DNA from: Escherichia coli
GTDB taxonomy: Bacteria > Pseudomonadota > Gammaproteobacteria > Enterobacterales > Enterobacteriaceae
Assembly (NCBI RefSeq): GCF_044324875.1
Contig: NZ_CP172185.1
Length of the DNA stretch: 64,000 bases
Reading direction: 5' to 3' (one strand)
In this document: positions 10,247 to 35,396 of the stretch, one piece after another
Position numbering within the stretch: position 1 is the first letter of the stretch
Layout: every line of letters begins with the position of its first letter
Program-made: the position numbers and the translations under genes
The notes under the pieces: model-generated
What the model was told of the DNA's origin: nothing
Databases searched by the model: none
What the model saw: only the letters and a program-made list of their open reading frames with translations

Positions 10247-10549
10247 AACTGTAACCTTCGAATTATGGAGTCAGAGACAATCTCAGACACGAATGTCTGT
10301 AATCATACCATCACATCCGAATCCCTTCAGCCCTTTACATAGAGATGCAAGGATGCTAATTGCAACAAACTAGTTTGGGTTTTAGCCAGTCCTTCATGGC
10401 GGATGTTGGATTTGCACGTGAATAGTGCTTTAGTATCAATATTCCGATGTATGATAAATAACTGAAACATTTGAATGGATAATATACAGTATACATTCTG
10501 TTAATATTTATGATATAATTCTTTTTTTATATTAATGGTCTTATTAGTA

Positions 10550-11682: not shown

Positions 11683-12879
11683 ATGCGTGGAGAATTTTAT
11701 CAGCAGTTAACCAACGATCTGGAAACCGCACGGGCGGAAGGGTTGTTTAAAGAAGAGCGCATTATTACGTCTGCGCAGCAAGCAGATATCACTGTGGCTG
11801 ATGGAAGCCACGTCATTAACTTTTGTGCCAATAACTATCTCGGACTGGCGAATCATCCGGATCTGATTGCGGCGGCAAAGGCGGGAATGGATTCTCACGG
11901 TTTCGGCATGGCTTCGGTGCGTTTTATTTGCGGCACTCAGGACAGCCATAAAGAGCTTGAACAAAAACTGGCGGCCTTCCTGGGGATGGAAGATGCGATT
12001 CTCTACTCTTCCTGCTTTGATGCTAACGGTGGCCTGTTTGAAACGCTGTTGGGCGCGGAAGACGCCATTATCTCCGACGCACTGAACCACGCGTCTATTA
12101 TTGATGGTGTGCGTCTGTGCAAAGCTAAACGCTATCGTTATGCCAACAACGATATGCAGGAGCTGGAAGCACGTCTGAAAGAAGCGCGTGAAGCCGGTGC
12201 GCGTCATGTGCTGATTGCCACCGATGGTGTGTTCTCGATGGACGGCGTGATTGCCAATCTGAAAGGCGTTTGCGATCTGGCAGATAAATATGATGCCCTG
12301 GTGATGGTAGATGACTCCCACGCGGTAGGTTTTGTCGGTGAAAACGGTCGTGGTTCCCATGAATACTGCGATGTGATGGGCCGGGTCGATATTATCACCG
12401 GCACGCTCGGTAAAGCGCTGGGCGGGGCTTCTGGTGGTTATACCGCGGCGCGCAAAGAAGTGGTTGAGTGGCTGCGCCAGCGTTCTCGTCCGTATCTGTT
12501 CTCCAACTCGCTGGCACCGGCCATTGTTGCCGCTTCCATCAAAGTGCTGGAGATGGTTGAAGCGGGTAGCGAGCTGCGTGACCGTCTCTGGGCGAACACG
12601 CGTCAGTTCCGTGAGCAAATGTCGGCGGCGGGCTTTACCCTAGCGGGAGCCGATCACGCCATTATTCCGGTCATGCTTGGTGATGCGGTAGTAGCGCAGA
12701 AATTTGCCCGTGAGCTGCAAAAAGAGGGCATTTACGTCACCGGTTTCTTCTATCCGGTCGTTCCGAAAGGTCAGGCGCGTATTCGTACCCAGATGTCTGC
12801 GGCGCATACCCCTGAGCAAATTACGCGTGCAGTAGAAGCATTCACGCGTATTGGTAAACAACTGGGCGTTATCGCCTGA
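11683..12879 (+). CDS. kbl: 2-amino-3-ketobutyrate CoA ligase (glycine C-acetyltransferase)
   Basis: 398-aa PLP-dependent enzyme, Kbl-like sequence. Confidence 0.93.
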
Positions 12880-12888
12880 GGATGTGAG

Positions 12889-13914
12889 ATGAAAGCGTTA
12901 TCCAAACTGAAAGCGGAAGAGGGCATCTGGATGACCGACGTTCCTGTACCGGAACTCGGGCATAACGATCTGCTGATTAAAATCCGTAAAACAGCCATCT
13001 GCGGGACTGACGTTCACATCTATAACTGGGATGAGTGGTCGCAAAAAACCATCCCGGTGCCGATGGTCGTGGGCCATGAATATGTCGGTGAAGTGGTAGG
13101 TATTGGTCAGGAAGTGAAAGGCTTCAAGATTGGCGATCGCGTTTCTGGCGAAGGCCATATCACCTGCGGTCACTGTCGCAACTGTCGTGGCGGTCGTACC
13201 CATCTGTGCCGCAACACGATCGGCGTCGGCGTTAACCGTCCGGGCTGCTTCGCCGAGTATCTGGTGATTCCGGCGTTCAACGCTTTCAAAATCCCTGACA
13301 ATATCTCCGATGATCTGGCTTCCATTTTTGATCCCTTCGGTAACGCCGTGCATACCGCGCTGTCGTTTGATCTGGTGGGCGAGGATGTGCTGGTCTCTGG
13401 TGCAGGCCCGATTGGTATTATGGCGGCGGCGGTGGCGAAACACGTTGGTGCACGTAACGTGGTGATTACTGATGTTAACGAATACCGCCTTGAGTTGGCG
13501 CGTAAAATGGGTGTCACCCGTGCGGTTAACGTCGCTAAAGAGAACCTCAATGATGTGATGGCAGAACTGGGCATGACCGAAGGCTTTGATGTCGGTCTGG
13601 AAATGTCCGGTGCGCCGCCAGCGTTTCGTACCATGCTCGACACCATGAACCACGGCGGTCGTATTGCGATGCTGGGTATTCCACCATCTGATATGTCTAT
13701 CGACTGGACCAAAGTGATCTTTAAAGGCTTGTTCATTAAAGGTATTTACGGTCGTGAGATGTTTGAAACCTGGTACAAGATGGCGGCGCTGATTCAGTCT
13801 GGCCTCGATCTCTCGCCGATCATTACCCATCGTTTCTCTATCGATGATTTCCAGAAGGGCTTTGACGCCATGCGTTCGGGCCAGTCCGGGAAAGTTATCC
13901 TGAGCTGGGATTAA
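12889..13914 (+). CDS. tdh: L-threonine 3-dehydrogenase
   Basis: 341-aa zinc-ADH family protein, Tdh-like sequence. Confidence 0.93.
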
Positions 13915-13923
13915 CACAAACAA

Positions 13924-13946
13924 GGGCTGGTATTCCAGCCCTTTTT
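13924..13946 (+). terminator. Intrinsic terminator of the kbl-tdh operon
   Basis: Stem gggctgg/ccagccc followed by TTTTT. Confidence 0.75.
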
Positions 13947-14152
13947 CCTGAGGATAATCCGTTAAATATGTAAAATCCTGTCAGTGTAATAAAGAGTTCG
14001 TAATTGCGCTGATCTCTTATATAGCTGTTCTCATTATCTCTCTACCCTGAAGTGACTCTCTCACCTGTAAAAATAATATCTCACAGGCTTAATAGTTTCT
14101 TAATACCAAGCCTGTAAAACGTCAGGATAACTTCAGAGGTTGTCGGTAATTT

Positions 14153-15187
14153 ATGATGAACAGCACCAATAAACTTAGTGTTATTATCCCGTTATATAAT
14201 GCGGGTGATGATTTCCGCACTTGTATGGAATCTTTAATTACGCAAACCTGGACTGCTCTGGAAATCATTATTATTAACGATGGTTCAACGGATAATTCTG
14301 TTGAAATAGCAAAGCATTACGCAGAAAACTATCCGCACGTTCGTTTGTTGCATCAGGCGAATGCTGGCGCATCGGTGGCGCGTAATCGTGGGATCGAGGT
14401 GGCGACGGGCAAATATGTCGCTTTTGTCGATGCTGATGATGAGGTGTATCCCACCATGTACGAAACGCTGATGACCATGGCGTTAGAGGACGACCTCGAC
14501 GTGGCGCAGTGCAACGCTGACTGGTGTTTTCGTGAAACGGGAGAAACCTGGCAATCCATCCCCACCGATCGCCTTCGCTCAACCGGCGTATTAACCGGCC
14601 CGGATTGGTTGCGGATGGGGCTTTCTTCCCGCCGTTGGACTCACGTTGTCTGGATGGGGGTTTATCGCCGCGATGTTATTGTTAAAAATAACATTAAATT
14701 TATTGCCGGATTACATCATCAGGATATTGTCTGGACAACAGAATTTATGTTTAATGCGCTGCGTGCGCGATATACCGAGCAATCGTTATATAAATATTAT
14801 CTGCATAATACGTCAGTGAGTCGGTTGAATAGACAAGGGAATAAAAACCTTAATTATCAACGTCACTATATTAAGATTACCCGCCTGCTAGAGAAATTAA
14901 ATCGAAATTATGCCGACAAAATTACGATTTATCCGGAATTTCATCAGCAAATAACTTACGAAGCATTGCGTGTTTGCCATGCGGTGCGCAAAGAGCCGGA
15001 TATTATTACCCGCCAACGGATGATTGCCGAGATATTTACTTCCGGTATGTATAAGCGCCTGATTACCAATGTGCGCAGCGTGAAGGTGGGTTATCAGGCG
15101 TTACTGTGGTCTTTCCGCTTATGGCAATGGCGCGACAAAACGCGGTCGCACCATCGCATTACGCGTAGCGCCTTTAATTTGCGCTAG
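14153..15187 (+). CDS. waaH: LPS core glucuronic acid transferase (GT2), Pho-regulon member in K-12
   Basis: 344-aa GT2 protein MMNSTNKLSVIIPLYNAGDD matching WaaH/YibD. Confidence 0.88.
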   Translation: MMNSTNKLSVIIPLYNAGDDFRTCMESLITQTWTALEIIIINDGSTDNSVEIAKHYAENYPHVRLLHQANAGASVARNRGIEVATGKYVAFVDADDEVYPTMYETLMTMALEDDLDVAQCNADWCFRETGETWQSIPTDRLRSTGVLTGPDWLRMGLSSRRWTHVVWMGVYRRDVIVKNNIKFIAGLHHQDIVWTTEFMFNALRARYTEQSLYKYYLHNTSVSRLNRQGNKNLNYQRHYIKITRLLEKLNRNYADKITIYPEFHQQITYEALRVCHAVRKEPDIITRQRMIAEIFTSGMYKRLITNVRSVKVGYQALLWSFRLWQWRDKTRSHHRITRSAFNLR

Positions 15188-35113: not shown

Positions 35114-35396
35114 GTGATGGCTTCTGATAAAGATAAATTTATAGCCCCTAGTATGCGCGACCAGGTGCTTTATTCACAACTGATGACATTGCAATAGTTC
35201 TATAACGTAAACATTAACATGCTTAAAAACTACGCAATTTATTGATTAATTAAGAAATTTAAAGAAAAAAGATAGTTAACAAAAGCGGATGATTATTGAG
35301 GATTGAGCACGTTTTCCTTAATGTCATTTATACCGGGATCTAAACTAAAATTGGCGGCCGCGCATTCCCGGCGCGGGGTTATACGGAGATATCATC

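Follow-up and report, generated by a model that had tools for sequence, protein, structure and literature searches.

The waaH (yibD) upstream region of Escherichia coli: a perfect PmrA/BasR box and only weak Pho-box-like matches

The dominant, clearest and most conserved control element of the waaH (yibD) promoter in the Escherichia coli DNA analyzed here (a stretch of 64,000 nucleotides of contig NZ_CP172185.1, hereafter the window) is a PmrA/BasR box, and no consensus Pho box is present upstream of this gene. Both facts are already known from the literature on the waaH promoter. The best overall explanation, to which we assign a probability of about 60%, is an ordinary, species-typical waaH promoter without a canonical Pho box and with an activator-dependent sigma-70 core, where the PmrA/BasR box would take the -35 position, 10 nt ahead of the hexamer TAAAAC. 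BasR~P and, to a lesser extent, QseB~P would bind this box and recruit RNA polymerase, while the dependence on PhoB, which in K-12 is genuine but limited (about 4-fold, residual expression staying high), is not exerted via a consensus site.

The gene order around the promoter, kbl-tdh-waaH-yibQ-envC, is that of the E. coli chromosome, yibQ and envC being located beyond waaH on the opposite strand; the start of waaH was confirmed, and the identities of tdh and waaH are backed by the RefSeq annotation of matching regions (Table 1). The interval treated in the first-pass annotation, which starts at position 13947, begins directly past the hairpin of the tdh terminator. An Rfam search of the region returned chance matches only, well under the threshold, and thus no known RNA element.

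Table 1. Features of the waaH upstream region and neighboring genes (window coordinates)
Feature	Position	Strand	Sequence or description	Basis or remark
kbl	11683-12879
tdh	12889-13914		stop codon 13912-13914
tdh-waaH intergenic region	13915-14152
tdh intrinsic terminator	13922-13946	+	stem GGGCTGG / CCAGCCC, loop TATT, then T5	scan: hairpin 13922-13943
Conserved far-upstream module	13969-14020	+	TGTAAA(13969)-N4-TGTCAG(13979)-TGTAAT(13985)-N8-CGTAAT(13999)-TGCGC-N5-TCTTAT(14015)
Degenerate Pho-box-like 18-mer (weak box)	14066-14083	+	TGTAAAAATAATATCTCA	11/18 positions of CTGTCATAAAACTGTCAT; core of the 14064-14086 string
Perfect PmrA/BasR (and QseB) box	14088-14104	+	CTTAAT-AGTTT-CTTAAT	consensus match and conservation
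Strain-private substitution	14107	+	C here, A elsewhere	spacer between PmrA box and -10
Predicted -10 hexamer	14115-14120	+	TAAAAC	10 nt past PmrA box; TAnAAn in 21/21 orthologs
Likely ribosome-binding region	14145-14149	+	GGTAA	invariant columns G231-A235, cross-genus alignment A2
waaH (yibD) coding sequence	14153-15187	+	UDP-glucuronate:LPS(HepIII) glycosyltransferase, 344 aa	ORF list and RefSeq annotation of matching regions

A Pho box was taken to consist of two CTGTCAT-like 7-bp direct repeats separated by a 4-bp A/T-rich spacer (18 bp), and was looked for with two weight matrices, one derived from the 18-bp sites, 59 in number, that a genome-wide PhoB ChIP-seq study gives in its Table 1 (PMC10294691), the other, stricter one from ten sites upstream of PhoB-regulated genes. 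The top score of the 59-site matrix in the intergenic region, 6.5-6.8 bits, belongs to positions 14088-14105, that is, to the perfect PmrA/BasR box, which is absent from the first-pass annotation. The two strings quoted there as degenerate Pho-like repeats do exist (cctgtaaaaataatatctcacag at 14064-14086 and cctgtcagtgtaataaag at 13977-13994) and yield 5.2-5.3 bits for 14066-14083, the core of the former, and 4.1 bits for 13985-14002, a part of the latter. The ChIP-bound training sites score 6.3-23.8 bits, 57 out of 59 of them reaching at least 10, and the maximum observed in our region is attained by 23.5% of its dinucleotide-preserving shuffles. With the stricter matrix the maximum is 2.3 bits versus leave-one-out scores of 5.6-23.9 for real sites. 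The consensus search gave the same picture: neither CTGTCAT-N4-CTGTCAT with up to three mismatches nor an exact TGTCAT half-site occurs in the tdh-waaH intergenic region, and TGTCAT half-sites with one mismatch number three, with 2.4 expected. No repeats matching the PhoB motif were thus found, and the weak Pho-like matches are real strings which, as single sites, are no better than chance. The earlier impression of only weak matches and of no clean Pho box therefore holds. The matrix and consensus searches agree, so visual inspection is not the source of this result; nor does the accompanying suggestion of a site that is merely difficult to call by hand hold, two weight matrices having found none either, and the high-scoring box that such a scan might have revealed did not appear (maximum 6.8 bits).

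The PhoB site known from K-12 between yibT and yibL could not be used as an in-window control for the matrices because of two core mismatches in this strain, and the scores of the training sites together with the leave-one-out scores served as the control instead. In K-12 this ChIP-seq site reads TGTAATAGTTCTGTAACG; at 35190-35207 of the window it reads TGCAATAGTTCTATAACG, both TGT cores being hit. The yibL-yibT intergenic region as a whole is polymorphic, with a megablast match in 2,020 of 5,426 genomes, 439 of them at 99% identity or higher. The best PhoB-matrix match of the whole window (14.4-15.4 bits) is TGTAATCATACCATCACA at 10298-10315, in the divergent intergenic region between hldD/rfaD and htrL; it outscores many ChIP-bound sites, and no K-12 ChIP-seq peak is listed nearby.

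As to the PmrA/BasR box, the sequence has the direct repeat CTTAA(T/G)-N5-CTTAA(T/G), and the exact box occurs only once in 64 kb (0.02 instances expected). CTTAA-N5-CTTAA is the consensus published for PmrA, and yibD is listed there among the known targets (PMC1525208). The UPEC yibD promoter was shifted by both PmrA~P and QseB~P, and its Fe3+-induced surge was lost in a pmrA deletion and five-fold lower in a qseB deletion (PMC5677524); in Salmonella, both PmrA and PreA activate yibD (PMC2653508). A scan for sigma-70 promoters gave no matches in the region, with no -35/-10 pair, and the lack of a -35 match fits an activator-dependent promoter. Judging by the sequence, TAAAAC is the probable -10 hexamer and transcription would start near position 14127; the start should in any case lie upstream of 14134, since a reporter fragment ending at that position is active. 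An alternative, PhoB-dependent -10 within the PmrA box (14090-14098) was rejected, because genera differ in the spacer of this box and the divergent Escherichia sequence loses the key A.

Our comparison of orthologous promoters covered one genome per species and comprised 21 promoters, tdh-linked or belonging to WaaH proteins of 73-96% identity, from 10 genera (Escherichia, Citrobacter, Salmonella, Leclercia, Cedecea, Enterobacter, Pseudocitrobacter, Superficieibacter, Siccibacter, and Kosakonia; one sequence comes from a MAG classified to the family only). The PmrA box is present in all 21 of them, at -64 to -71 from the start codon, and is followed, exactly 10 nt further on, by TAnAAn, located 31-38 nt ahead of the start codon. 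In Silvania the copy of the box is degenerate. A strong, positionally conserved PhoB-matrix match was not found in the waaH orthologs of the 10 genera.

Some other homologs were also encountered. In genomes of the Citrobacter freundii complex and Kluyvera the gene directly after tdh encodes a 64-67% identical WaaH homolog, whose promoter is unrelated and contains a single CTTAAT only. In some Citrobacter an 82-83% identical homolog is preceded by a full PmrA box; it appears to reside at another locus, as its upstream sequence lacks the end of tdh.

The premise of the first-pass annotation that waaH is PhoB-dependent in K-12 is borne out by the RNA-seq data published with the PhoB ChIP-seq, where waaH has 13,872/11,547 reads in the wild type but 3,032/2,925 when phoB is deleted (log2 fold change of 2.1, about 4-fold). 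In the same deletion phoA, pstS, and phnC fall 100- to 2,500-fold, and eptA, basR, qseB, ygiW, and eptC are unchanged, which indicates that the effect of PhoB is promoter-specific and is not a result of general BasR/QseB activation. Indirect control through activation of BasR or QseB was rejected for this reason, and, eptA being unchanged, a PmrA box by itself is not sufficient for PhoB dependence. Stronger responses are known from other strains: in EDL933 waaH is upregulated 81-fold in low phosphate with a 15-fold dependence on PhoB, and in an APEC pst mutant it is upregulated 46-fold. A truncated K-12 yibD promoter, corresponding to 13996-14134 of the window (139 bp), retains tight low-phosphate induction, and removal of the upstream part did not reduce expression and even raised it in minimal medium. 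The expectation of a Pho box, which was deduced from the PhoB dependence, is nevertheless contested, as neither the PhoB ChIP-seq nor the earlier ChIP-chip gave any signal upstream of waaH, and the authors of the former call the regulation indirect, although their tagged PhoB was about 8-fold less active and they concede that weak sites could be missed. On the other side, according to a preprint PhoB shifts the waaH promoter of EDL933 in a dose-dependent manner, and in vitro PhoB binding at yibD is reportedly also described in a DNase footprinting paper by Yoshida of 2011. As for whether PhoB acts directly at waaH, the literature is thus in disagreement, in vitro binding standing against negative ChIP.

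Just one signal exceeds chance, namely that the two best matches are phased by exactly 22 bp. The 18-mer 14088-14105 has the geometry of a Pho box relative to the predicted TAAAAC, but it is the PmrA box; the weak box lies one box-length upstream, on the same strand and in phase, its start being exactly 22 bp upstream of that of the PmrA box. The summed score of the two phased matches (12.0) ranks first among 127,922 window positions and is reached by 0.1% of shuffles, with the reservation that this test was devised after the phasing had been noticed and that one member of the pair is the PmrA box, which adds to the PhoB score only because CTTAAT resembles tolerated PhoB half-sites. We suppose that PhoB~P could bind, with low affinity and possibly cooperatively, to four 11-bp-phased half-sites (TGTAAA at 14066, TATCTC at 14077, CTTAAT at 14088, and CTTAAT at 14099), which together make up the weak box and the PmrA box and end 9 nt before the predicted -10. 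A distance of 9 nt from the last 18-mer to the -10 is also the spacing in phoA. Such weak occupancy would explain why PhoB shifts the promoter in vitro and leaves no ChIP peak. Apart from the negative ChIP, other points speak against a direct action of PhoB on this array. At 22 bp upstream of the box the PhoB-matrix score is positive in Escherichia only (5.2 and 2.4, versus -6.8 to -50 in the other genera), so that the distal weak box may be a matter of chance, or its A/T core may be an UP element; and inductions of 46- to 81-fold sit poorly with sites as weak as these.

The same array could be extended to a dual-input promoter, in which two regulators of the OmpR/PhoB family would share the four half-sites, BasR using the perfect proximal CTTAAT pair and PhoB~P binding cooperatively as two tandem dimers across the Escherichia-specific distal weak box and the BasR box, the latter acting as a surrogate proximal Pho box. 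If true, this would account for the PhoB dependence in spite of the missing consensus site and ChIP peak; we consider it unlikely, and it is the one reading here with a slight degree of novelty.

Wholly indirect control by PhoB, with no binding in vivo, with the Pho-like strings arising by chance in A/T-rich DNA and with another PhoB-dependent factor or a physiological change bringing about the 4-fold effect, is a serious contender, if on the whole a rather unlikely one. It agrees with the lack of ChIP-seq and ChIP-chip signal and with the conclusion of the ChIP-seq authors, with single-site scores that do not exceed chance, with the lack of conservation of the weak box outside Escherichia and with the high residual expression of waaH in the phoB deletion. 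However, weak sites could have escaped ChIP given the reduced activity of the tagged protein, in vitro binding has been reported, there is no obvious intermediary, since the other BasR/QseB targets are not PhoB-dependent, and the 139-bp fragment carries the low-phosphate response by itself. Direct, weak, and possibly cooperative binding of PhoB therefore seems to us somewhat more likely than purely indirect control, though the evidence favors neither decisively.

The A/T-rich core of the weak box, GTAAAAATAATAT (14067-14079), is conserved in Escherichia, C. amalonaticus, and Silvania, and might serve as an UP element for the alpha subunit of RNA polymerase, which would be compatible with both direct and indirect control by PhoB. 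Distal UP subsites sit about -60 to -48 from the transcription start, and this block lies at about the same distance from the start predicted here; besides, the conservation spans the A/T run and not the second Pho half-site. We regard this assignment as unlikely, however, as the block is not conserved in most of the genera that keep the PmrA box, and the start position is itself a prediction.

Further upstream, about 125-160 bp from the predicted start and just past the tdh terminator, lies a module of TGTMAN-type direct repeats. Nothing else in the region is as well conserved across eight genera, with many invariant columns in alignment A2, and the module contains the second of the two strings quoted above. 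It is very improbable that this module (13969-14004, CTGTCAG-TGTAAT...CGTAAT) is the true target of PhoB, acting from about -140 or through a second promoter with TCTTAT (14015-14020) as its -10. Apart from the high conservation, such a role is suggested by the sequence TGTCATTGTCATAAAT, which other genera have in the module and with which the matrix score reaches 11.9 (6.7-11.9 in some Citrobacter and Pseudocitrobacter), by the resemblance of TGTAAT-N8-CGTAAT to the phoE Pho box TGTAATAAAAGCGTAAAC with three extra spacer bases, and by the conserved TCTTAT 10 nt past CGTAAT, possibly a part of that second promoter. On the other hand, the half-sites of the module are spaced by 10, 6, and 14 bp and not by the 11 bp needed by PhoB dimers, and in E. 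coli their scores do not exceed 4.1 bits. Moreover, most of the module, including TGTAAA, TGTCAG, and TGTAAT, is missing from the truncated yibDp promoter, which is still tightly inducible by low phosphate and is stronger in minimal medium; the second string is thus dispensable for the phosphate response, as a promoter without that part keeps its induction. One source labels the area an NsrR repressor site, which also speaks against PhoB; our inspection of the module by eye for the CpxR, NsrR, TorR, and ArcA motifs gave no convincing match.

An alignment of 301 bp with K-12 MG1655 shows nine substitutions and no indels, neither quoted motif being touched; both strings recur unchanged in K-12 and in five further diverse E. 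coli strains, and all promoter elements discussed here are invariant in six diverse strains. Of 5,426 complete E. coli genomes, 5,418 carry this region, in most cases with 95-99% identity. The idea, put forward in the first-pass annotation, that the site diverged in this strain from a proper Pho box in K-12 is virtually untenable and already refuted by these alignments: K-12 and diverse strains share the candidate motifs and the PmrA box letter for letter, the private substitution at 14107 falls outside every candidate site, the K-12 sequence gives the same matrix score as the window, and nothing was found in support. The missing Pho box is a trait of the species and the wider family and not of this strain. 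As to the substitution itself, other aligned E. coli strains have A in this column, and all 5,274 complete E. coli genomes matching the 41-mer 14095-14135 are one base off, none being identical; the change is probably neutral, as the column varies between genera, or a sequencing error.

Two other E. coli strains show changes at this locus. CAU16175 carries, in alignment with 14066-14077 of the window, a 12-bp tandem duplication of TGTAAAAATAAT, which gives the weak Pho-like box two copies of its first half and puts the sequence upstream out of phase with the PmrA box. In strain 119 from cattle waaH is annotated as a frameshifted pseudogene, its promoter being intact.

In general, these results matter little beyond tidy annotation. 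Some practical value stems from the wide use of the yibD promoter as a phosphate-depletion expression switch, and the idea of phased half-sites defines concrete mutations.

The waaH promoter resembles the PmrA/BasR-controlled promoters of eptA/pmrC, arnB/pbgP, ugd, and Salmonella yibD in that the CTTAA(T/G)-N5-CTTAA(T/G) repeat occupies the predicted -35 position with no -35 hexamer, and in that the gene product modifies LPS; PmrA binding and PmrA-dependent induction by Fe3+ are documented for yibD. In contrast to eptA, waaH depends also on PhoB and low phosphate and has a degenerate Pho-like box in phase just upstream. With the promoters of the Pho regulon (pstS, phoA, phoB, phoE, ugpB, phnC) it shares upregulation in low phosphate, reduced expression in the phoB deletion, activator dependence and 11-bp-phased direct repeats ending 9-10 nt before the predicted -10. 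It differs from them by having neither a consensus Pho box (at most 6.8 bits versus 10-24) nor a PhoB ChIP peak, by a decrease of about 4-fold in the phoB deletion versus 100- to 2,500-fold for phoA, pstS, and phnC, and by its promoter-proximal repeats being a PmrA box. Comparable are also ytfK and psiE, which, like waaH, are listed in the Pho regulon from older work and gave no ChIP-seq or ChIP-chip signal, in vitro PhoB binding having been claimed for ytfK; unlike both of them, waaH has a well-defined site for another response regulator.
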